Shown: in pieces, positions 5,304 to 58,247 of the stretch | Position numbering within the stretch: position 1 is the stretch's first letter | Layout: each line of letters begins with the position of its first letter | Origin: Octopus vulgaris | Taxonomy: Eukaryota | DNA length: 64,000 nucleotides | Reading direction: 5' to 3' | Assembly: GCA_951406725.2 (NCBI GenBank) | Contig: OX597815.1 | Span: forward strand, 67,952,001 to 68,016,000 | Notes under the pieces: model-generated | Seen by the model: only the letters and a program-made list of their open reading frames with translations | Database searches by the model: none | What the model was told of the DNA's origin: nothing | Program-made: the position numbers and the translations under genes

Positions 5304-5960
5304 TAATAAATATTAATTTAGACTTATTAAATTATGCAATATACAATATAAAATCACATGCTAATTTTTAGAATTCATACTAGTACAAAATATAACAACA
5401 AATTAGAAACAAAAATAGGGTTTAAATACAGTCGCTACTTATCTAAACATTTATTATATAAATAAAGTCATTTGTGTCTACATTTAATTTTACGCTCGTT
5501 CAATATATTAACTAATTTATTATGCTTATTAAATAGTATTTCTTTAAATTCACTAGAACATAAAAAACAGGAATACTACCTATACTATATGATTTCACTT
5601 TAAATTATACTTAAGTCTTTGGGATTTAAGTTCCCATATATATTTGCTAAGCCCGGTAGAGTTCATAAGATTTCTATTCTTAAAGGAATGCATATGCTGA
5701 GCGACTCTTAATTTAAATTTTGTGGAAGTAGACCCTACATATTTATTTCAATATATTAAAATAAATATATAGGAAGTAGACCCTATATATTTATTTCAAT
5801 TGAATTTATATTTAATTGTAGCCATGAAACGTACGTAGGTTTTTTTACTTATATATTGATTATTCATTTTTATAGTTTTTGAGATCTAGTTATGTTTTAT
5901 AAAAATATATTTTATTTATTATTTATGTTTTGGTTTATGTCTATCACTGTTTGAGTTGCA
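4625..5960 (+). mobile_element. Extremely AT-rich segment, possibly a heavily decayed PLE 3' end
   Basis: Abrupt composition shift near 4625; ends in a hammerhead-like remnant (5778-5842: AGACC..GAAA CGTACG TA GGTTT) before (TA)n; protein similarity only vague. Confidence 0.4.
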
Positions 5961-8460: not shown

Positions 8461-8565
8461 AGCTTACAGCTGTTTCTATTATAAGATGCAATGGACTAAT
8501 AGTAGACTATAAGATGCAGTGGACTATAAGATGCCTGAATAACACCTTAAAGCTTTATCGGAGCC
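8461..8565 (-). ncRNA. Decayed type I hammerhead motif with extended helix II
   Basis: Minus: GGCT CCGATAA [long helix II] GAAA CAGCTG TA AGCT; two substitutions in the CUGAUGA core; palindromic helix III. Confidence 0.5.
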
Positions 8566-9484: not shown

Positions 9485-9485
<1 letters not shown>

Positions 9486-9916
9486 TACCACAGATTTGCT
9501 TGTCAGTTGTTTGACTTTAACCAGTTGAGCATGTCCCTTAGTGACTGACGATATGTGCATCTCTGATCACGAGCAGAAGTAGTGGGGGAGCATCATAGCC
9601 ATGTGTTGAGAGGGATTCTTTGGGGTTTGAATAATTCACCTCTGGAAACATGGGTGGTTCTTTCAACATCCTTAAACAACCCTTATTCAGGGACCTTTTG
9701 AGCGGGATGGGCTACTCAACCTGAAGAAAATTCTAACTGGGCCCCACCTGCAAGGTCATGTGCTGTTTATCTTGATATGAGATCACCATGTCGCGCTCAT
9801 GGTTGTGATGCATGTGCCTGGTGTACCCTTATCAGACGGGTAGTCTTGATGGGTATATTGGGCTTCGTATATTTAACCCCAGTGTCACTTTGATGGCATG
9901 AACTGCTCTCTCACAC
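9485..9916 (+). mobile_element. Truncated copy of the (AAT)n-embedded 556-bp repeat
   Basis: Reverse complement of 1651-2084 with few differences; (AAT)n on both sides. Confidence 0.85.
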
Positions 9917-11445: not shown

Positions 11446-11492
11446 TTTGACTGAAGAGACACAACCAGGTTGAAATACCACGGCGTCTCAAA
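11446..11492 (+). ncRNA. Type I hammerhead ribozyme
   Basis: TTTGA CTGAAGA GAC..GTT GAAA TACC AC GGCG TC TCAAA; perfect 5-bp helix I, intact core, GUC cleavage triplet. Confidence 0.75.
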
Positions 11493-21800: not shown

Positions 21801-23396
21801 AGTTTCATTAGAGACGATCTGGACATGGTAGAGCATCTACCAAAAACCACCAACGAAGAAGCTCTATTAGTCTCCTTTGATGTCATCAACCTCAACACTA
21901 ACATTCCACATGACTACGGAATAGAGGCAATAAAATTCTGGTTAGAAAAATACCCGAAGTTCTCCCGGACCGCTTAAACCATACCATTGTCATTGAATTC
22001 CTGGAGTTCATCCTACAAAACAATTATCCCCTTTCGATGCAACATGCAGTATTGCGATGGGAACGAAAGCAACGCATGTCCTTACTAAGCTAATAATGGG
22101 TTTCTTTGAATCTATCCTATATGAACTTTTGCTCCAAACATTTGGACCCCGATTCCACCAGTATATAAGAGAAAACTGTAAGAGGTACCTAGACGATTTT
22201 TTTAATCATCTGGAATGAAACCTATGATAAACTCCTGGATTTCAAATCCTCACTGAACAATATAAACTCCTATATTCAATTTACAATGGAATATAGCAAG
22301 GAACAGCTCCCATTTCTGGACATTTTGATTATAAAAAAATCCAACGACCAAATTGCAACTGACATCTACTACAAACCAACAGACTCAAAACAGTATCTCC
22401 TTTTCAGTTCATGCCATCCTAAACGCACCAAAATATATATCCCATTCAATCTAGCTAAAAGGATCTGTACAATTGTATCTGACACAACCACGCGGGAACT
22501 TCGCCTACAAGGCCCCAAAATAACACTCACTGAACGTCAATACCCACCCTCACTTATATACCATGGAATTGAACGTGCCAAGAAATTAGACACAAACACA
22601 CTAAGGACAACAAAACAAACACCAAACCTCACTTTAAATCACTCCCATACATATCAACCCACAACCCCAGTAACAATGAAGCATGCAGTACAATTATACA
22701 AAATCTCCCTCTGCTCACTCAAGACCCGAAAATGAACAACATCCTAAATACACATAAACTCTTCAAATGCAAAAGACAACACAAATCACTCATGAGACTC
22801 CTAACAAGTGCAAAAAACTATACTCAATACATACGATACCAGCAGTTAAAAAATGCAGACGACCTAATTGTAGTACATATCCATACCTAACTGAATGCTC
22901 AGAATTCATATTCCAGCAAGGAGAAAAATTCTCAATTAAGGCCAACTTCACATGTGCTTCCCAGAACTTTATCTATGCCCTAACCTGCTCAGATTGTGGC
23001 CACAATTATGTGGGCCAAACGAGTCTTACTTTGAGGCGCATAGTCACGCTCCATAAATAACAGATTCGTTTTCCTCAATACATGCAGATAGCCCAGAGTG
23101 AACATATCGACAGATGCGCAAGAAATAAACGCCGAATTTACATATCTTTCCATTATACCAATGTAAAGATTCACTCTCCTTGCAAGAACGCCTAAACAAG
23201 GAAAACCTGTTCATACAAAAGTACTTCACACCTTATTATACAAACTTGACCACTTCAAAAATTATACTGAAGACTTAGTTGTCCCCCTTGCCACGTGTTA
23301 CCTCCCTTGGTCCACTCTCTAAACTCATTCTTATTTTTCAAGCATCCAAAATGGCGAGACTCCTTTGTCACAAGAATTGATTACTTCACATTGTCC

Positions 23397-25183: not shown

Positions 25184-25761
25184 AAATTACATGAACGTAT
25201 ATAAACAGAAGATACAAATATTACAGGCACCCCCACATACACTAAATAAACATAGACGCACATAGAGATATAAGCATGTGCAAATGAAGACATACAATAG
25301 AAATACAAAATGGCTGACCGTTAGTAAAGAGAGACACAAATAAGAAAGAAGAAAACAAAGGACCACTGATGCGGTCACAGGAGTGTGACGAAAGAACTCT
25401 GGCCGAAATAAGATTAAGATTAATGTAAAAAATAAATAACGCTGAAGCAAAGTAACACCAGATATATAGTGCGTGTGATTTTATTGGCTAAACTTTGCTT
25501 CAGCGTTATTTATTTTTTACATTAATCTTAATCTTATTTCGGCCAGAGTTCTTTCGTCACACTCCTGTGACCGCATCAGTGGTCCTTTGTTTTCTTCTTT
25601 CTTATTTGTGTCTCTCCTTACTAACGGTCAGCCATTTTGTATTTCTATTGTATGTCTTCATTTGCGCATGCTTATATCTCTATGTGCGTCTATGTTTATT
25701 TAGTGTATGTGGGGGTGCCTGTAATATTTGCATCTTCTGTTTATATACGTTCATGTAATTT
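25184..25761. repeat. 270-bp near-perfect inverted repeat (tail-to-tail PLE pLTRs), 38-bp spacer
   Basis: Arms 25184-25453 and 25492-25761; I count three transitions between them; mirrored ORFs 25187..25450(-) and 25495..25758(+). Confidence 0.95.
25360..25404 (+). ncRNA. Minimal hammerhead, variant core (mirror copy at 25541-25585 minus)
   Basis: GGACCA CTGATGC G GTCAC AGGAGT GTGAC GAAA GAAC TC TGGCC. Confidence 0.7.
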
Positions 25762-28240: not shown

Positions 28241-28350
28241 CATGCACCTGATGTGACACAAACTGCACAGAGTGATGCAACACAATTAGATGCACAATAT
28301 CCTACCCATAACGGATAGTTGCAGGTTGGGTCGAAACGATCGTCGTACTG
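28241..28350 (+). ncRNA. Type I hammerhead with extended branched helix II
   Basis: CATGCAC CTGATGT GACACAAACTGCA...TGCAGGTTGGGTC GAAA CGATCG TC GTACTG, then AATAAA; helix II base 11/13 paired; segment flanked by (TA)n. Confidence 0.7.
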
Positions 28351-32551: not shown

Positions 32552-32643
32552 GACTAACTCTGATGAGCGTAAAGTTATGCAAGCGGATTGTTACCTAACA
32601 CTCCAGTGTATTCTTTACGCGAAACCGATTGGTATGATCAGCC
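32552..32643 (+). ncRNA. Type I hammerhead with extended helix II (helix I decayed)
   Basis: CTGATGA GCGTAAAG...CTTTACGC GAAA CCGATTGG TA; perfect 8-bp helix II base; related 3' half at 31136-31160. Confidence 0.7.
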
Positions 32644-32658
32644 CTGATGGTTATTTAA

Positions 32659-32696
<38 letters not shown>

Positions 32697-32705
32697 TATA
32701 TATAT

Positions 32706-35582
32706 CAAGCCTTATGCATAGCACTTACAGAAACGCACCTGAAACCGGACATAGCAGATGCGGAGTTACACATACCACAGTATGCTGTACTACGGACCGA
32801 CAGGAAAGAAAGGAGCCATGGAGGTGTTGCTATGTACATCCGTGAGGACCTCACACCCCAGGTCCTCTTGTCATACTCAAACTCGGTGTGTGACACACTA
32901 ATTGTACATATTAGGCAACTTGATGTAGTTGTGTGTGCTACATATCGCCCTCCAGATGCCCCAAGCCATGTGGGCAAGTTTGAAGACTGCCTTATAAAAA
33001 TAGAAGAAATTCTAACCACATTAGAACAACACATAGGTGTGCTTCTTATGGGAGACTTCAATCTGCCCAATGTCAGATGGCCCGAGGGCCTTTCTCTCCC
33101 AGGAATGACAAGATGTGAACGAGGACAGGCGAGGTCCCTCCTGAACCTCATCAACACCCTGTACATGGAGCAGGTAATACTCCAACCAACCAGGGCAGGT
33201 AACACACTGGATCTCTGCTTCACAAATGACATGGATCTCATCCATAATGTGAAAGTGACACCGACACTACTCTCGGATCACAACATGATAGAGCTGACCA
33301 TGTACGGGCCAAAAGAGAGCACGGACATGCAGCCTACAAGAAACCCTCAAAATCTTTCCAGCTTGAACTACCATAAGGCAAACTGGAAACAAATTGAGAA
33401 AGAGATCCTCAAACAAAACTGGCATAAATGTCTCTCCTCGCCAGACATCGACGTGAAACTTCAACAATTCATGTCTGTAATGCAAGCCATATGCTACAAA
33501 TGTGTCCCAGAGAGAAAGGCCACTGTACACAAGAACAAAATCCCCAGAGAGAGGAAAATTTTTATGAGACGGCGTACGAAATTTTCAAATCGCCTAAACA
33601 AACAGATTGAAAGCAGTGAAAAGTCCCGCCTAAAAATAAAACTGTTGGAAATCGAAAAATGTCTGCAACTCTCCCATGAAAAAGAAAGAGCAGACAAAGA
33701 AGCCTGGGCTATAGAAAACATAAAATCTAACCCCAGAGCTTTCTACAGGTATGCCAAAGAAACAGCTACAGTGCACTGTAGAATAGGGCCACTCCTCGAA
33801 AAGGATGGCACACTTACAGGAAAACCAATGAGGGTAAGTGAAATACTGAATGAGCAATTCAAGAGTGTTTTCACTCCACCCCTTGGGCATCTCCAAATCA
33901 CCAATCCAACTGACTTTTTTACCACTGCAGATATAAAATCAGAGGCGGCGACGATAGATTACATCGATATAAAGGAAGACGATGTAACCAAGGCTATAGA
34001 TGAAATGAAAACAGACTCAGCTACTGGCCCCGATGGATTCCCGGCAATCCTCCTAAAAGCATGTAAGAGAGTCCTAGCAAGACCACTGCAGTTCCTCTTT
34101 CAGAGCTTCCTTGCAGCTGGCAAACTTCCAGGAAAACTGAAGGAAGGTAAAATATGCCCCATTCATAAAGGAGGTAGCAGAGCGGAAGCCAAGAACTATA
34201 GACCTATCTCTCTGACCTCACACATCAGCAAGGTCATGGAACGAATAGTCAGAAGGAAGCTGATCACCTTCCTTGAAGAGAATGACTTGCTGCCCGACAC
34301 CCAACATGGTTTCCGACCAGGGAGAAGCTGTTTAACTCAGCTCCTACAACACTATGACTGGGTGCTGAAACGGCTGCTCAACCACTCAAATGTGGAAGTG
34401 ATATATCTCGACTTTGCAAAGGCCTTTGATAAAGTCGATCATGGAATGATATGTCACAAACTGCGTGATCTCAACATAGTTGGAAAACTGGGAGAATGGC
34501 TTCATGACTTTCTGAAGGATAGAAGTCAGGTGGTAGTAGCCAATGGGGCCACCTCCATTAACACACAAATAGTGAGCGGTGTTCCGCAGGGCACTGTTCT
34601 GGGACCACTACTGTTCATAATGGCCCTCTCAGACATGCCCTCAGCCACGCAGAGAGCCACGATCACAAGTTATGCAGATGATACAAAAGTTTCACAGGCA
34701 ATACAGAACCCTGAGGACACTAAACACCTGCAATGTGAGCTGGACGAAATATACAAGTGGGCTGAAAAGAATAGCATGCAGTTCAATGCTGGAAAGTTTC
34801 AAGCTTTATACTATCAGCATGCAAAACTGAATGCAATACCCAATGAATACACTGGACCCGGAGGGATTGCAATCCCAGAGGCACAATCAGTGCGTGACCT
34901 GGGTATTCACATGAGTGATGACGCGACCTTTCATGTACATGTTGCTAAACTGACAATGAAATGTAGACGGCTGGCTGGCTGGATTTTTAGAACCTTTAGA
35001 ACAAGAGAACAAGAAACCATGATGGTCCTCTGGAAGACACTTGTCCTAAGCCACTTTGACTATTGCTCTCAGCTATGGTCACCATCCAGCGTCAAGTTGA
35101 TCACAGAACTTGAGGCGATCCAACGAAGCTACACAAAGAAGATAGCCTCTATGCAGAATGTAAGCTACTGGGAAAGACTCAAGAGATTAAAATTATATTC
35201 CCTGGAGCGTAGGCGGGAAAGATATGCCATAATATACATCTGGAAGATCCTGGAGGGAAGTGTCCTGAACTTTGGCATCGAGAGTTACGCAAATGCCAGA
35301 ACTGGGCGCCACTGCGTGGTGCCTAGGACTCCAAACCTGCCATCAAGATGTAGGACAAGATTCTGTGATAGCCTGGGCTTCCGAGGCCCACAGCTCTTCA
35401 ATATCCTCCCGAAGAACCTGAGAGACCTGCATGGGGTGGATACAGATGTCTTTAAAATGAAGCTGGATCTCTTCCTGTCAGGTGTCCCAGATGAACCAAC
35501 TTCACGGCAGGAGGGGCAGATGAGGGCAGCTGCATCGAACTCTCTCATGCACCAAATAGCAGTTGCTAGAAAGCCTCCATGA
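32706..35582 (+). CDS. LINE ORF2: APE endonuclease plus reverse transcriptase (frame open from 32706; first ATG at 32832)
   Basis: QALCIALTETH, YRPP, GDFN, SDH (APE); NYRPISL, QHGF, YLDFAKAFDKV, GVPQG, YADD (RT); no stops across 916 aa plus the upstream extension. Confidence 0.95.
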   Translation, partial: QALCIALTETHLKPDIADAELHIPQYAVLRTDRKERSHGGVAMYIREDLTPQVLLSYSNSVCDTLIVHIRQLDVVVCATYRPPDAPSHVGKFEDCLIKIEEILTTLEQHIGVLLMGDFNLPNVRWPEGLSLPGMTRCERGQARSLLNLINTLYMEQVILQPTRAGNTLDLCFTNDMDLIHNVKVTPTLLSDHNMIELTMYGPKESTDMQPTRNPQNLSSLNYHKANWKQIEKEILKQNWHKCLSSPDIDVKLQQFMSVMQAICYKCVPERKATVHKNKIPRERKIFMRRRTKFSNRLNKQIESSEKSRLKIKLLEIEKCLQLSHEKERADKEAWAIENIKSNPRAFYRYAKETATVHCRIGPLLEKDGTLTGKPMRVSEILNEQFKSVFTPPLGHLQITNPTDFFTTADIKSEAATIDYIDIKEDDVTKAIDEMKTDSATGPDGFPAILLKACKRVLARPLQFLFQSFLAAGKLPGKLKEGKICPIHKGGSRAEAKNYRPISLTSHISKVMERIVRRKLITFLEENDLLPDTQHGFRPGRSCLTQLLQHYDWVLKRLLNHSNVEVIYLDFAKAFDKVDHGMICHKLRDLNIVGKLGEWLHDFLKDRSQVVVANGATSINTQIVSGVPQGTVLGPLLFIMALSDMPSATQRATITSYADDTKVSQAIQNPEDTKHLQCELDEIYKWAEKNSMQFNAGKFQALYYQHAKLNAIPNEYTGPGGIAIPEAQSVRDLGIHMSDDATFHVHVAKLTMKCRRLAGWIFRTFRTREQETMMVLWKTLVLSHFDYCSQLWSPSSVKLITELEAIQRSYTKKIASMQNVSYWERLKRLKLYSLERRRERYAIIYIWKILEGSVLNFGIESYANARTGRHCVVPRTPNLPSRCRTRFCDSLGFRGPQLFNILPKNLRDLHGVDTDVFKMKLDLFLSGVPDEPTSRQEGQMRAAASNSLMHQIAVARKPP

Positions 35583-36607: not shown

Positions 36608-36768
36608 TTCTTTTATTCTTTTACTTTTTTACTTGTTTCAGTCATTTGACTACGGCCATGTTGGAGCACCGCCTTTAGTGAAGCAAATCGACCCCAGGAC
36701 TTATTCTTTGTAAGCCTAGTACTTATTCTGGTGGTCCCTTTTTTCCGAACTACTAAGTTACAAGGACT
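36608..36768 (-). mobile_element. SINE 3' half (CR1-like tail)
   Basis: Reverse complement of about 7640-7800. Confidence 0.85.
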
Positions 36769-36897
36769 ATGTATATTCAATTGATAGTATGGCATACACC
36801 TGGTAGTTTGCCGGTAAAACACTTCACTGGCTTAGTGTTCGTTGGATATGTAATTAATGAGAGAAACGAAAGCTGGAAGATAAGAGAATCTTTATTG

Positions 36898-37003
36898 ATC
36901 ACTACAATCGTTTCGACCCATCTAGCATCGATCCCTCACGGATGGGATACAACACAACTGGTTTGAGTGTATCCCTTGGTGTAGATGTGTCTCCTCAGGT
37001 GAT
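36898..37003 (-). ncRNA. Apparently intact type I hammerhead with branched helix II domain
   Basis: Minus: ATCAC CTGAGGA GACACATCTA [hairpin GGGATACA/TGTATCCC; hairpin ATCC/GGAT] TAGATGGGTC GAAA CGATTG TA GTGAT, then AATAAA. Confidence 0.85.
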
Positions 37004-37399
37004 TTCAAGAAGAATCTCGTTAAAATAAACTCTCTTTCGCACAACTTATTATTGCATTTTTTGTTCTTGGTCTTCGTAGATAGAAATTGCAAACTAAGGG
37101 ATACTGCATTATTCTTACAGAAGATCAGTGATAAAGATGAGACACAAAAAGAAACAAATACACAATACAGCGGAAAAATTACTACATATAACCGTTAGTA
37201 GATTGTAATTATAAAGTCGGTACCCATTAATGGCCAGTGATATGATACTGCTTGATGAGTAGTTACACATTCAGTGATGCGCTCCACTGGGTCTAGCTGG
37301 TATATCTTTATGGAACTTGCACATTCATAACTACGGACATAAATATCAACATACACTCATATATACTCGCACGGACATATTCACACAGTTTAGTGTATA

Positions 37400-37720
37400 T
37401 TGCTATACGTATACGTCGCAACTCAGCACAACACTCTAGAATCAATAAGCTAAACAACAAATATAAGGAACACGACGTACTCTGGTATAACCCAATCCAC
37501 GGTTCACATGTGTCAACGAAGATCACTAGGGAGTTTTTCGCCGTTTTAGATAAATATTTCCTTAAATCAAATAGATACCATAGTATTTTTAGTAGGAACA
37601 CTGCGAAGATATCATATGCAAACTCCACTATTTTAGAGCAACACTTACACCAGATTAATAACAGAAAAAATGAACCAATATATATTGTTATAAGGGAACT
37701 TTGGGACATTGCGGAGCTTA
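37400..37720 (+). mobile_element. Nematis-like PLE fragment (RT-EN linker)
   Basis: VLWYNPIHGSHVSTKITREFFAVLDKYF..YHSIFSRNTAKISY. Confidence 0.75.
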
Positions 37721-47979: not shown

Positions 47980-50131
47980 ATTAAAGAAGAAGAATGGAAA
48001 GTTGGTAAGGATATAAAATTAATTTGTTAACATACTGCCAAATAAAGACTACTTTCGTTTAAATTCAGTCCAATATATAATTGTAAATTCAAAGATTGGA
48101 ATAAATCCAAAAGTTAGAATAAAATTCCATTTTGAAAATATTGGGCAGAATCTCATCAGGGCTAGAGTACAATAGAAAGAGTTACATGTTGATGGATTGG
48201 GTTTTATCAATAGACTAAGAAAGTTAAGAAATGTATATTTTAGTGTTTGTATGTCTATGCTACTAATCTAAAAAATGATATTAAAAAATTAAAAATATAG
48301 TACAAGGGTAAAAAGTAAAAATGAAAACCAAATAATAATAGATATATAATATAAAGTAAGATAAAAATAAAACCGTTATCTATGTAAATTTCTATTCGTT
48401 TACATAATCATTGTGTATTATGCCTATGTATTTATTATCATAAAATCTTATCGAATCAGATTGATTCGTTTATGTATCTGTGTAGTTTAATTTGAAGAGG
48501 ATAGCCGTTAAAACTATGTATTATTTATATATCTGTATATAAATAACTCCTGTTAACGCGTAGCGTATGAATATGTGTTTGTTTATACATATGTATATAT
48601 CTGTTATATATATGTGTGTATGTGTGTGCATGCGTATAAAAACATTTTTGTATTAAGCAAAAAAAAAAAATTGTGATAATTAATTTTAATATTTTTTACA
48701 AAATGAATTAAAGTTAATCAAGATTATTAAAATAAGAGTTTTATTATTGTTAATAAATTCATGGTTCAGAAAGGGAAAAATTGCATATTACATAGCAGCA
48801 CAGATTTAGTGTATTACATCATCAGATTATGTATTATTGAAAGAACAAGATTATTCCTAACGAAGACTGTCTCTTTACATAGTAATTATATTGCTAAATT
48901 GATCATGTTAATTATTACAATTTCATTTATACAAAAATTACATATTACATGTTTGTACTTTATTACTTCATATTACATTATTTGTATGTATTTGATATAT
49001 AGTCTAGCAATATTAAGAGAAAATATACTTCGAAACGTGTACACAGAATAAACTTTTCATTTCTAGAATTAAGTAGTTGATGTCTGGAAGGTGATATTTG
49101 ATAAATTTCTTCTACACAAAGTTCACATCGCCTGTCATTGATACTATATGGTTTAGCGTGACTCATAATTTTCCATTTAATTTTATAACTCTTAGTATAA
49201 CTCTTATTGCTGTTCTTTATTCTCCAAATGAACTAAGACTTGTATTGTTAATTTTTAGACGGTTCTCAAAACTACTTTCGTGGTTAGCTATTCTTTTCTT
49301 TATAGAACATTCAGTTGCTCCAATATAAAAATAATTATTACTTACAGATTTAACAATTTCCTGATATACCAGATTATTGTGTTTACAGAAATTATTAAAT
49401 TTACAGTTGGGCTTGTTCTTACAATTACAAAATTTATTTTCATCAGCTTTTTATTGATTATAACAAAGGAGTTCTAGTGAGCTGTTTCTCATTCACTATT
49501 TGAAGTAAAATCATCACCATTTGTCATGGCCGATTTATCATGTTGTGTATTCAATGAAAGAGTGTCTATTTTACGATTCTCATAAAAATAATCTAGTTTT
49601 CGGTTGTTAATTGAGGATATAATTCGAAATAGATTACGAGATGAAGAGAACGCTATTCTAATTTTCGTATTATTAATTATTTCACTATATTTATTATTAG
49701 TAAAGTTTTTAGTTATTAATCCACGCAAAGATTTAATTACGTTAGTTTTTATCTGTTTTCCAAAAGGGATAATTTGCCTTATGGTATTATTCGTATCAGA
49801 ATTATGGTTATAGTAATTGTCAGTATTTGTTTTAGTGGAGTTTTTCTTGGCAAATAAAAATGTTTTATTAAAAGCTATTGGGTTAATGGAGGAATAATAA
49901 TCATTAATATCAACTTGCATGAATTTATATATGTCCTTGTTTTCAATATGATTGAACCAACCTATTACCTCTTATGTATTAGACCAAAGTTCCAATCTAA
50001 TCTTATTTCTCAGAACAGTTATAAATTTGTCAATAATAAATTTATTTAATTTCCCGAAGTCTAATTTGCCCGGTCAAATGAATCTCAGTCCTTCTAAATT
50101 ATTCTAGACCTTAATGGAATAAAAGGTTCAG
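47980..50131 (-). mobile_element. Nematis-like PLE, internally deleted
   Basis: Minus: QVDINDYYSSI (RT); FCNCKNKPNCKFNNFC..LVYQ..FYIGAT..RIANH (GIY-YIG); RRCELCVEE..LLNSRNE; hammerhead remnant at 48047-48164. Confidence 0.85.
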
Positions 50132-52001: not shown

Positions 52002-52361
52002 ATACTCATGTATATATGTACAGATATATACACATATACATATATATACATATACAAATATATGCACAGATACATATATAAATATATATATATCTACATA
52101 CATACATATACTTACATATATATATACGCATATACAAACATATACATACATATATATACATACATATGTACATATACATATATACACATACAAAGATAGA
52201 TATATATATACACATATATATATACACATACATACATACACATTTATACAAATAGATATATACACACATATACATATATATATATATACATATACATATA
52301 TACATAGACATATATATACATAGACATATATATACATACATATACTGACATATATATTTAT

Positions 52362-55137
52362 ATCTATTAAATTCTCAAATTTTTCTTCCAAATATCAAAG
52401 GAATCTAACAAAAATAGTCAACCAAATTATTAATTCACCAATAGTACATGTCTTTTCTGATAAAACTGGAAATTTATATTCTATTACCCCAATTCACTAC
52501 CAAGATTTTATCGATAAAGAACTATGTAAATCATATAAAATTACAAACACGTCAAATTTAGAATTGATAAATAATGAACATTGTAAAATTATGTATAAAT
52601 TGGAAGTCGAAGACCGCACAGAAATATACACTCCAAATACACCACACTTCAACTTAAAGGACCACAAATCTGATTTTAATATTAATCCAACTATAAGACT
52701 AATTGGCAGAATCAGTAAAAATATACTTGACCGAATTATATCTATAATGAAGAAAAAAACTCAATTGTAACATTTGGTTTAGCACAGGAGAAGTAATTAC
52801 TTGGTTCCATTTACTACCAAAAAAAACTAACTCGTCATTCTTACAATTTGACATTAATAGCTATTATGCATCTATACTACCGATTATTAAATAAAAATTC
52901 AATTTTATCCAAAAGTCTCTCTGATATTACACCACTTGAAATTGATATAATACTACTAGCTAGAAAAACACTTATAAAATTTAATGAAAAATTATGGTGC
53001 CGTGCCGCAAATAATAATGTATTGGATATTACCATGGGATCTTCTGATTCCGCACAAATTACAGGCTTGGTAGGTTTATATCTGTTACATAAGTCTAGAC
53101 AATGCTTCTCTTTTCTCAAAGGAGGATTATAAAGAGACGATGCTCTCCTGGTTTATAATGGCCGATCCAAAAGAAAAATAGGTAAAATGAAGGAAGAACT
53201 CCATAAATTTTATAAAACTTTGGTTTATCTATTACCTTTGAAGAAAGCAATTGTAAAGCGAATTTCTTAGATGTAACTCTGGACCTCAATACCTCTACTT
53301 ATTCTCCTTTCTATAAACGTAATGAATATCTCAAATATATAAACATTCATTCTAACCATCATATATCATTACTTAATAGCATTGTAAACAGTATATCTAT
53401 TAGAATCTCAGATCTATCCTATAATGAAGAAATATTTAATAATCACGCCAACTATTATAATCAAGCTTTAGCTGCAAATGGATTTAAACAAAATATTAAA
53501 TATATAAAAGATATAAAACTTAAGCTTTATATAGCACAAATGGAACTAAACCAAACTACGCATAATAGTAAACTAAGAAATACAACTAACCTTACCTCTA
53601 ACAACAATATTCAATCAATACAAAAAGATGAAACCTTTGTAAAACATGATAAAAAAAAGAAAATGTTATGGTAGTTATAAAACCAAATATAGTAATAAGA
53701 AAAACACTCGGGAAATACTATGCACATTCCAAAATCAGTGCATAACTATAATAAATGGCCTAGTAGGAGTGAAAATAGGAAAATTATTTGGTGCACGCAC
53801 CCCATTTTCAATAAATGTTAAAAGATTAGCAAAACAGTCAAAAATAGCTTTCCTAATAATCATAAGTATCACCATATATTTAATAGATTAACAATTAAAA
53901 TATCTTTTTCAACATTGCTGAACATAGGATCAATTATCGCCAACTCTAATAGACGAAAACTTAATAAATATAAAGATAGTTTAAGAAATAATAACAACAA
54001 CAATAATACTAGTAATGAAATAGACAATAGTCCTAGAACACTAAATAATACTCAACATAATATTTGTTCAATAGATAACATTACGAGAACACATAGCAAT
54101 ACTATAACAGTAACAAAATCTCAGCAAAATTCCAATAATTATACATCTCAAAGTATCCAATAGGCCTTAGATAATCCAATACCACAATCTAATAACATTA
54201 ATAACTTACAAACAGTAAATATACCTAATTCTATTATAAATGATTCCACAATAAATTCAAATATAGCACCACGCACCATAACAAATAATCATAATAGTAC
54301 TAAAGATTATACCACAGAACAGAAACATATAACTAAATATTGCACATGTAAACATAAAAATCATGTCTTTTTGAAGGCAAATGTAGAAGGTTCAACGTGA
54401 TATGTAAATGCAATGTTACAAAAACTGATAACTCACACAGTATGGTATATATAGGGAGCTCTATTTTAGCACATATACATTCATTTAAACCAAATATAAC
54501 GAGTAACACTACTTCATTGGCTACATATATACACAAACTCAAACAAGAAAAGTTAACTATATATTATCCTGGTCAATCATTGACTCAGCTACACGATATA
54601 CACATAAATCTTCTATTTGCCGTCTTTGTACAAGGGAATCGGTATACATATTATTACATAAACATAATTATTTAATTAATTGCCAATCTGAAGCATTATC
54701 CACATGCAAACATGGGTTTTATGAAACTTTTAAGCACTATAAGAGATCGTCAAGTAAAGAATCATATTAATATCTAATTCTTTTTTATTTTTCATATAGT
54801 GGTATCATAATAATAGTAGGTGTTGACAAGTAAGAAAAAAGAAAATTAAATTTGAATTAATTTGAGTATACACATATTCACATAACATAAATTTTCCATT
54901 GGATAAATGATAGAAATGTCTTCTTGAAATTCGAATCAGTACACCTCTATTGTACAGCAAATTGATTTTAAATATAATAATTTAAATTTTACATTAATTT
55001 ACTCTATATTGTGTCAGTAAACGGCTATATTTACATTTGCATAAAATATAACAATGACATCTTCTTCCATATAATACAAAGTAAGATAGGGGTATGGATG
55101 TAACCCACTATGGGATATCATTTATCCAATATACTTT

Positions 55138-55659: not shown

Positions 55660-58247
55660 AAAACAAAAAAATGAAGAAGTCTTATGCAATAAACAAACTT
55701 CAAACAGAAATTGGAGAGTCAAAACACACAGTTATACACAAACCAAATATCAAACACCAGAATCGGATACAACTACTGTCAAAATGCCAAGAGCAACTAG
55801 ACAAAATCAAAAATATATGAAGAATGACCGGAACAACAGAAGAACCAAACCTCCACATATTAATCCCAAACAAAATTCTACCACTCAGAAAATTACCAAC
55901 ATGAAATGCCAGTGTACATAAAATATTTCACCACAAAAGAGATACCCCTATCCCAAATTCTTTTTTAGGAGAAGATGCCTCCAACTAAATGAAATAAAAA
56001 ATGAAAAAAACACCACCCTTGACGAAGAAAAACTACAGGCACCAAGAATAATCAACAAATCGGCCAAGAAATTAACACAAATGGAAATCAAACTATTACA
56101 AAATGGACTGACTTCCCCCACCCCAAAAGCAGATCAAGCCGATCATATAAAAGACACAGAAGATTTTTGTCGCAAATTGCGTCTAGGAGAGTTTTTCCAG
56201 CATGTAGAATACGAAGAGGAGTCACTAGGGCAAAACAAAAAGAACTTCAAACCACCGCTGGATAGAGGCAGACACTTGGAAGAATACATAACCTGCTTAC
56301 TACGATCAGCCCAGTCAAATATTGCAGAAACGAAGCACAAATACATCTTCTCTATAGACCAACTGCCAGCACTAAACAAATTACAAAAAGACTTCTCAAT
56401 AATCATTAAAAAAGCTGACAAACCTAGAGCAACCGTCACCATGGACAAAAACCACTACAAATATATGATCCTAGAACAGTTGAATAACGAAGGATTTTAC
56501 AGGAAAATCAACAAATGCGAGCAAAAAATAAAGTAGATAAACTGACAACAAAGCACCAAAATAATCTCAACTAAAGGGAATCAATAACTTAACTTTGAAA
56601 TGAAAACCAGTAATTTTTATGGATTACAGAAAGTTCACAAATCCAAAGAAATCTAAAACAGCATAAAATCAAAACTTCATCATATGTCGAAGTACAAAAA
56701 CCGGCAGATTTAAAATTACGACCAATTGTTGCTGGTCCAGCCTCACGCACACAACGTCCAAGCAACTTATTAGACATCATTCTGAAACCCCAATGTAAAA
56801 AAGTGCCAATCAAAGATGATATGAAATTCCTGATCTATATCCCCCCAAAAGTACACCAAGACACAATCTCAGTCAGCTTTGATGTAACAAGCTTATATAC
56901 TAACATCCCACACGAAGTAGGAATTGAAGCGGTTGACTTCTAGATTACAAAACATCTAGATTCCATTTCAGAGAGATTCCCGACAGAGTTTATTTTGGAA
57001 GGGCTCAAATTAATATTGGAGAACAACCACTTCCTCTTTGATAACGAACTATATTTACAAATAAAAGTAACAGCCATGGGCACCAAAGTAGTCCAAACAT
57101 ATGCAACACACGTTATGGCATACCGAGAAACAAAATTATATTCCCAACTGCAGGAAACGTTCAGTCACGACTTCGCTACCTACATTAATAACTGGAAATG
57201 TTACCTAGACTATAGCTTCATCTTCTGGGATAGAAATCAAGAAAACCAGCTAAGATTCCATTCAATCATAAACAAGTTCCATGAAGCAACACAATTCACT
57301 ACGGAATGTAGTAGAAAGGAACTACCATTTCTGGATATCGTTATCATTAAAGAAGAGGAAAATATCAAATTTTTACCTATTTTACAAACCAACACGAATA
57401 CTTAAATTTCCGATCAGCACACCTCTCTCATACTAAAAGGAACATTCCCTTTAACATGGCAATACGCATCTGCACCGTAGTAACACAGCCCACACAACAG
57501 GAAAAGTTTTCATGAACTAAAATGGTTCCCTAAAAGACAAGAATATTCGATGAACCTTATCAATACAGCTATCTCCAAGGCCCAGAACATTCCAGTGACA
57601 ACACGGAGAAAGACAAACCAAAAAAATAAAAAGGACAAAACAGGCATCCCCTTTGTCGTCACTCACAACCCAAGGAACTTCAACATTGTGAAAGCCGCCA
57701 TACAATATCTCCCAATTCTCCAGCAATCTCCCAAAATGAATGCACTCATAAAATAATATATAGCAGATGCCAAACACCAAACCTAAAAAAAAACTACTCA
57801 CCAAGGCGAAATTTACATCTAACACTGAAACAATGTCTGTTAAAAAATTACGGGGTCCCTTGATACAGAACCCTTGATTGAAGAGGATGTACAAATCTCT
57901 TTTAAAAGCAATATTTTCAAAATCAAAGCAAACATGAATTGGAAAACGAAAAACTTAATTTACGGTGCAACTTGCCCACAATGTAAAGAGTACTATATTG
58001 GTACACAGAGTTCGTGTACACAAACAACAAATTAAAGACCCCTCTGTCAGAAAGACCACTTGCAGTGGACACTTCGCATCATGCGGAAAGGGGAAATTCA
58101 CAATCTTACCCTTCTTCAAGTTATGGTCTGACAACAATCATTTTCGGAAGTATAAAACATTACTGAACACATAAAAATGATATTCCAAGTCCACACAATC
58201 CCCAACAAATAATGGGATCTTTTTTATATATGAGGATGGGGTTGCGT
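55655..58247 (+). mobile_element. Second Neptune-like PLE, decayed
   Basis: FCRKLRL, KKADK, LRPIVAGP, FDVTSLYTNIPH, TAMGT, LPFLD, NLIYGATCPQCKEYYIG. Confidence 0.9.

Follow-up and report, generated by a model that had tools for sequence, protein, structure and literature searches.

Hammerhead ribozymes of Penelope-like elements (PLEs) from the Hydra clade are the closest described counterparts of the motif analysed here (Craig et al. 2021, PMC8557442). They are likewise of type I, lie in sense near the 3' end of the element and share a short helix I, a self-complementary helix III and an A-rich sequence past helix I with the present motif; the elements that carry them, which include Hydra-1_oBim, also have (TA)n targets and protein motifs in common with the element described below. 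The difference lies in helix II. In the 26 Hydra rows listed in File S2 of PMC8557442, stem II measures 3-7 bp and loop II 3-10 nt, in keeping with the first-pass annotation of this DNA, which had proposed a distinct architecture, whereas helix II of the families reported here spans 54-92 nt. The longest loops in that file, 28-34 nt, belong to two spike-moss PLE-X elements marked as deviating.

The minimal hammerheads of metazoan PLEs (Cervera and De la Pena 2014, PMC4209133) are, according to the parts of that paper covered, likewise located in pLTRs and have a palindromic helix III, predicted activity as dimers and thousands of dispersed truncated copies. The descriptor given there (stem II of 3-7 bp, loop of 3-10 nt) is failed by the 77 nt of the main site, no long or branched helix II is described in the same parts, and subfamilies A1, A2, B, E and F (defined below), unlike the minimal hammerheads, have no extra base after A9. 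The sole PLE tested in vitro is the Anolis Poseidon element PAc (Frangieh et al. 2024, PMC11167929), whose hammerhead, from the sections covered, depends on the PLE protein, while insertion does not require cleavage. As in the present families, two 3' ends define a tail past the PAc hammerhead and copies arise from uncut RNA. PAc belongs to another clade, however, and its ORF starts inside stem II rather than approximately 270 nt past the cut site, as at the octopus locus L289. A full-text literature search of partial coverage, which included PMC7936874, PMC7761336, PMC3088659 and bioRxiv 10.64898/2026.07.22.740005, found no long or branched helix II in a PLE hammerhead, and a text search of the PMC8557442 supplement, in which line breaks could hide a match, did not find two of the family motifs. 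Judged from sequence, the novelty would be a structural variant, with a long helix II, of an already known PLE ribozyme type; repeat libraries may already hold these families unannotated.

A complete hammerhead with an extended second arm

A complete type I hammerhead was found at positions 36898-37003 on the minus strand of the window, the 64,000-nucleotide stretch of Octopus vulgaris DNA analysed here (Table 1). Checking letter for letter confirmed the features originally reported for this site, namely the catalytic nucleotides CUGAGGA, GAAA and GUA, the 5-bp helix I, the near-palindromic helix III and the AATAAA, and the NUH site and both the CUGANGA and GAAA cores are all present. Helix II, the second arm, is closed by GAC/GUC and measures 77 nt, close to the approximately 80 nt initially claimed, as against the usual 10-25 nt.

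Table 1. Coordinates of the main-site hammerhead, its parent element and the other hammerhead sites of the window
Feature	Position	Strand	Remarks
Inverted piece of the element's own ORF (RT thumb/linker, WYNP motif)	37414-37680	+	
PLE 3' UTR upstream of the hammerhead	37004-37413	-	
Helix I, 5 bp	5' strand 36999-37003, 3' strand 36898-36902	-	Covaries across subfamilies
Catalytic core CUGAGGA (C3-A9)	36992-36998	-	
Extended helix II, 77 nt	36915-36991	-	Irregular stem of ~14 bp plus 44-nt distal domain
Predicted first hairpin, P2a	36944-36975	-	Stem 36975-36969 with 36950-36944, variable 18-nt loop
A-CCC-NNNA-GGG-A, most conserved distal segment	36932-36943	-	Predicted hairpin P2b, or part of an alternative 5-bp hairpin
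GAAA core	36911-36914	-	
Self-complementary 8-nt helix III ending in GUA	within 36903-36914	-	Predicted cut after 36903
AATAAA	36891-36896	-	One base past helix I
Element 3' end	36788-36897	-	Usual end ~55 nt past the cut site, optional tail to ~115 nt
Subfamily B copy, 78-nt helix II, A9U core	28241-28350	+	
Decayed family C copy (family helix II 92 nt)	48047-48164	-	Downstream of Hydra-type ORF remnant ~49000-49970
Family D hammerhead, unbranched 54-nt helix II	32552-32643	+	
Damaged family H copy (in the family majority, helix II is unbranched and 54 nt)	8461-8565	-	

An initial descriptor scan of both strands of the window matched the main site only. When loop II was allowed up to approximately 120 nt, as had been proposed with the first-pass annotation, two matches were obtained, the main site and a short motif at 11451+, compared with a mean of 0.01 and a maximum of 1 in 200 shuffled windows; the match at the main site is not due to chance. 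The short motif (11446-11492, plus strand) has a 5-bp helix I, CUGAAGA, a 14-nt helix II, GAAA and GUC, and its helix III is non-palindromic. The Rfam model RF00163 (Hammerhead_1) aligned the core and all three helices of the main site at 13.9 bits (E 2.3), below its gathering score of 34 bits because of a 63-nt insertion in loop II. Together with the published loop limit of 3-10 nt, this bears out the expectation that short-loop descriptors miss the form. In an Rfam scan of the whole window, no hammerhead was present among the 150 matches listed of 275, which were microsatellite-driven. When folded alone, the helix II insert formed a stem with two hairpins (z -1.69, 10 of 200 shuffles equally good), and minimum-energy folding of the whole 106 nt did not reach the hammerhead fold (z -0.27).

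The parent is a Penelope-like element with Hydra-clade marks

By its sequence, the main-site motif is identified as the terminal-repeat (3' UTR/pLTR) hammerhead of a decayed PLE with Hydra-clade protein motifs, the position in the 3' UTR and these motifs bearing out the PLE identity originally put forward. The ORF piece that is inverted beside the main site lies in sense, 1.2-1.6 kb upstream of the hammerhead, at 16 of 29 other loci and is arranged in the same way at 3 loci of a separate locus set, and 21 of 40 further loci contained a family match. Between this piece and the hammerhead, many loci contain CxCx5C, a GIY-YIG-type YIG motif, CxxC and CxH. At locus L289 (subfamily E), which is a partial tandem, the hammerhead is followed by a broken ORF with RWK, NKT (for DKT), YRDD, CxCx5C and YIG motifs that starts approximately 270 nt past the cut site, placing the pLTR just upstream of the next ORF. 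Pfam matches in this broken copy (RVT_1, E 0.015; GIY-YIG, E 0.0012) were both below curated cut-offs. The order of RT followed by a C-terminal GIY-YIG domain, a criterion of the Hydra clade, is present; the clade is also marked, in the parts of PMC8557442 covered, by RWK, DKT, a CxCx5C linker, and CxxC and CxH around E/N. An inverted second copy occurred at 3-10 of 24-29 loci per family, and (TA)n targets were seen among family insertions. By protein motifs, endonuclease order, (TA)n targets and partial tandem or inverted copies, the element would fit the Hydra clade. A protein search with a 90-aa fragment returned 25 candidates, none of them significant.

Two other identities were ruled out. 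A Naiad PLE, with an N-terminal GIY-YIG and no canonical hammerhead, is incompatible with the C-terminal endonuclease; Naiad membership would have accounted for Naiads that seem to lack a hammerhead. A non-LTR retrozyme, made of short non-coding tandem units with hammerheads at their borders, does not fit families whose copies derive from a coding element, are cut down to its 3' end and extend upstream to varying degrees, although subfamily B, with no ORF seen beside its copies, may still be of this kind. As a separate observation on Naiads, the records preceding the Naiad_Omin and Naiad_Ovul headers in File S5 of PMC8557442 contain, by eye, a 6-bp stem with a loop of approximately 23 nt before GAAA, and the same octopus Naiad 3' ends show a variant first core, also by eye; a long-loop hammerhead may lie behind the 'half core' label of the octopus Naiads.

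The 2.8-Gb genome yielded 2357 first-look candidates for the main-site motif, and the full-length matches among the 40 that were scored were 81-87% identical; the main-site family is high-copy in the genome. Copies have a common 3' end followed by a microsatellite and a variable 5' truncation, with 20 of 34 matches ending at +50 to +61 and 9 of 34 at +105 to +119 past the cut site. These clusters at approximately 55 and 115 nt match the two internal RT start sites plus tail of PAc, as given in the sections of PMC11167929 covered. In A1, A2, B, E, F and G, 67-87% of copies have AATAAA after helix I, and no copy of families C or D has it there; in several families it can also pair with the upstream flank. 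A poly(A)-like loose end at 36876, approximately 15 nt past AATAAA, in one contig from a presumed RNA run weakly hints that AATAAA may be a real signal; four such runs contain family-like contigs, from which neither ends nor strand can be read. In the window, the copy is itself probably a dead and inverted fragment. After the tail of the element, at approximately 36615-36760 on the minus strand, lies a different short repeat, which also flanks other loci and which we take to resemble a SINE.

Related subfamilies and the other sites of the window

Searches with the window sites and with diverged loci yielded A1 (the window copy), A2, B (28241), E, F, G, C (48047), D (32552) and H (8461). Samples consisted of the 19-30 best loci per search, which biases them toward well-preserved copies, and the A2 sample of 16 copies picked by motif. 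Helix II measures 77 nt in A1, A2, E and G, 78 nt in B and 79 nt in F, and 92, 54 and 54 nt in C, D and H, respectively. The claimed genome-wide recurrence of the extension holds, with 77-79 nt in six families. A1, A2, B, E and F are mutually 55-81% identical. First-look candidates, which are not copy numbers, amounted to 2357 for A, 807 for B, 755 for E, 287 for F, 1349 for G, 1532 for D, 1591 for H and 74 for C. Some copies of A1, C, D, E, F, G and H have a Hydra-type ORF match next to them, and none of the 29 subfamily B loci does; subfamily B may lack autonomy or be catalytically weak. Rates of change at paired and unpaired positions are similar within families (0.08-0.12 vs 0.08-0.15), which implies that copies decay neutrally and that only differences between subfamilies inform on selection.

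The first-pass annotation had also described the branched layout as recurring in unrelated sequences, but the sites cited in support are not independent examples. Positions 28241-28350 (core CUGAUGU) are homologous to the main site (70 identities, alignment z 9.7). The family C copy at 48047 lacks G12, has a scrambled helix III and folds as a nested rod, and the arms on which its branching had been based recur in 1 of 29 (TGGAAT) and 4 of 29 (TTGGA/TCCAA) copies of its family. Among the sites proposed as simpler long-helix versions, the family D hammerhead is real and unbranched; 8461 is a damaged copy of family H, whose majority has the 54-nt rod; and 5778-5842 contains the GAAA/helix III half only, without CUGANGA. 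The 77-nt helix II of family G likewise folds as a rod.

Further features were observed in the window. Directly after the family D hammerhead, inside (TA)n, lies a non-LTR retrotransposon (32691-35582, plus strand) with an unbroken 963-aa frame containing an APE-type endonuclease and RT (Pfam). Hydra-type PLE ORF remnants are present at 49000-49970 (minus strand) and 52324-53674 (plus strand), and remnants of another PLE type at 22193-22735 and 55922-57405 (both plus strand). Long, nearly perfect inverted repeats occur at 25184-25761 (270 nt at 99%, 38-nt spacer) and between 1769-2084 and 9485-9800 (316 nt at 98%).

Fold of the long helix II

The majority sequences of A1, A2, B, E and F are predicted to form a 10-16-bp stem ending in a two-hairpin junction (fold z -2.5, -2.1, -1.25, -3.8 and -4.0), and all five have a distal domain of exactly 44 nt that contains no indel although 9-23 positions differ. 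Covariation was assessed on 30 natural copies, six per subfamily, nearest to the majority. The whole named structure was 80.8% paired as against 75.3% when shuffled (0/500) and 27-38% when slid, with the caveat of the covariation tool that related sequences can beat these shuffles without structure. Double changes were seen in four of five helix I pairs and four of five proximal helix II pairs; helix I and the core-proximal part of helix II covary clearly. The two hairpins alone, however, were 73.0% paired compared with 72.4% shuffled (134/500; covariation 66/500) and did not rise above the control. RNAalifold predicted no pair on the 30 natural copies, and in a plain alignment 18 of 43 changed pair cells were still paired, which does not exceed neutral decay (0.25-0.42).

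Within the distal domain, P2a is paired in 28 of 35 cells of the five majorities, with one double change. In the A-CCC-NNNA-GGG-A segment, 7 of 12 columns are invariant as against 2 of 18 in the P2a loop, and the GGG run stays 4 nt from the complementary CCC (13 of 15 cells). A1 and F, which are 59% identical, share a common junction with one A-U to G-C compensatory change, and their distal folds are more stable than shuffles (P 0.010 and 0.018) and exceed random divergence (P about 0.03). A 5-bp hairpin incompatible with the two hairpins obtained a better score (0/500), though essentially from one column pair, and one flanking pair takes four pair types. In the ensemble, A1, A2 and F adopt the first register, E the second and B firmly neither, P2a being absent in B and E. 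Shuffled distal domains inside a fixed outer stem gave a two-hairpin junction 22-53% of the time. A first drift simulation, in which topology was kept in 1.5-9%, was discounted since it also mutated the stem needed for catalysis; under a fairer null, topology was kept in 25-64%. A pseudoknot of the 5' G-run with the second C-run was rejected, as only 2-4 bp were found by eye. The branched two-hairpin helix II of the first-pass annotation therefore stands as a prediction for five related subfamilies, with a junction common to A1 and F, and falls short in hairpin covariation and in the frequency of such junctions among shuffles: the long helix II is established, while the exact branched fold, as modelled, is only partly supported.

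Core variants, helix III and insertion traces

Intact CUGANGA and GAAA cores were present in 12 of 35 A1 copies. Subfamily A2 carries an apparent U4C (1 of 16 intact) and its core spellings fit CpG decay of CCGA; U4C reduces activity in vitro, according to the part of PMC3088659 covered. In subfamily B, A9U was found in 21 of 35 copies and an intact core in 0 of 35, and the same change occurred in 5 of 36 E copies (e.g., L256 and L257). Both core-changed lineages, A2 and B, retain the 77-78-nt arm. As the U4C and A9U lineages were amplified with the arm kept, the arm appears to outlive strong catalysis.

Helix III is self-complementary in six of seven family majorities, with three different palindromes plus one of 10 nt, and also in G and H; the E majority has two mismatches. 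A palindromic helix III is, from the covered parts of PMC4209133 and PMC6765202, a signature of dimer-dependent PLE hammerheads. In a set of 29 copies found by their downstream part only, 24 continue past the cut site for 10 nt or more on its upstream side, and the starts of 3 lie no more than 3 nt from it; these 3 are not distinguishable from ordinary truncation. Since most copies read through the cut site, templates would have been mostly uncut or rejoined. Separately, a candidate RT-stop cluster was seen: the first base of 7 of 29 tail-bearing copies (L354, L356, L359, L365, L367, L346 and L371) lies 27-35 nt upstream of the cut site (P 0.01 under a uniform and 0.08 under an exponential model). 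There, where a short palindrome marks the base of the distal domain, these copies show 5' truncations or inversion joints; the cluster was not replicated in second copies (1 of 34).

Possible roles of the extended arm

The function of PLE hammerheads has been called 'still a mystery' (PMC7761336, part covered). The reading tentatively favoured here, a plausible one with nearly even prospects, is that the 77-nt arm is a non-catalytic handle for the element's own RT protein. An RT or protein binding site had already been suggested in the first-pass annotation and is plausible by analogy with PAc. As the hammerhead of PAc needs the protein and cleavage is dispensable for its insertion, this role appears the likeliest, ahead of a passenger arm. 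The RT protein would recognise the 3' region of the RNA via the arm and also help the ribozyme to fold; cleavage after GUA would depend on helix III pairing between two hammerheads, such as tandem transcripts provide, and would release the following unit approximately 270 nt before its start codon; and integration would proceed mostly from uncut RNA, primed approximately 55 or 115 nt past the cut site. In A1, A2 and F the distal 44 nt may adopt a three-way junction; in B and E their fold would be looser or shifted. This reading draws on the 3' UTR position sense to the ORF, the intact core, the palindromic helix III, the covarying helix I and proximal helix II, the fixed arm length, the two 3'-end clusters and the amplification of core-changed lineages that kept the arm. 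Against it stand the distal hairpins that do not exceed shuffles, the empty RNAalifold result, the rod of family G and the other Hydra elements, which work with a loop II of 3-10 nt, so that the clade does not need the arm.

Several of the same observations would be expected of a tolerated passenger, in which only the helix II closing stem is selected, to let the core form, and the distal 44 nt are an inherited loop II expansion with incidental hairpins. Loop II tolerates inserts, helix II varies among 22, 54, 77 and 92 nt in related elements, two-hairpin folds are frequent in shuffles and the distal hairpins show no covariation above controls. The 44-nt domain is nevertheless free of indels across five subfamilies, its A-CCC-NNNA-GGG-A segment is far more invariant than the adjacent loop, and the A1 and F distal folds exceed random divergence, so that a passenger arm is considered possible but rather doubtful.

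Improbable, in turn, is a tertiary-contact module, whose distal hairpins would dock on an extended, bulged helix I, replace the loop I-loop II contact and speed cleavage. Atypical long-helix hammerheads with loop contacts are known (PMC7936874, in the part covered), and the helix I flanks pair beyond shuffles in A1 (-14.0 vs -8.4 kcal/mol), A2 (-19.3 vs -8.8 kcal/mol) and D (-16.7 vs -10.8 kcal/mol). However, the helix I extension is weak in E, F and C, by eye, no conserved sequence near helix I in the alignments could pair with the distal loops, and the arm is kept in lineages with damaged cores. Sp/KLF factors bind CACCC boxes. A DNA-level element, in which a CCCACCC-like segment would be the part of the pLTR promoter driving a downstream tandem copy and the RNA fold would be secondary, is equally improbable, for although PLE promoters reside in pLTRs (PMC6765202, part covered), the L289 pLTR lies immediately upstream of the next ORF and the fixed spacing is compatible with a promoter, the GGG run complementary to CCC is kept at its fixed distance, a flanking pair takes four pair types and the motif is absent from family G.

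A broader form of the protein-handle reading, which we consider unlikely though worth stating, is that a PLE lineage grew a three-way-junction domain on helix II, possibly switchable between two registers, that would dock the telomerase-like RT, couple RNP assembly to cleavage and be kept though the core decays. Hammerheads with such a long arm go unseen in standard searches and may underlie PLEs listed with a half core. The published descriptor overlooks a large class of genomic hammerheads, and Rfam likewise misses the main site; statements of 'no hammerhead' therefore need rechecking with long loop II limits. The octopus families provide a natural series on one scaffold, with helix II of 22, 54, 77 and 92 nt, rod or branched, and with cores that are intact, U4C or A9U, so that catalysis and the peripheral arm can each be tested for its role.
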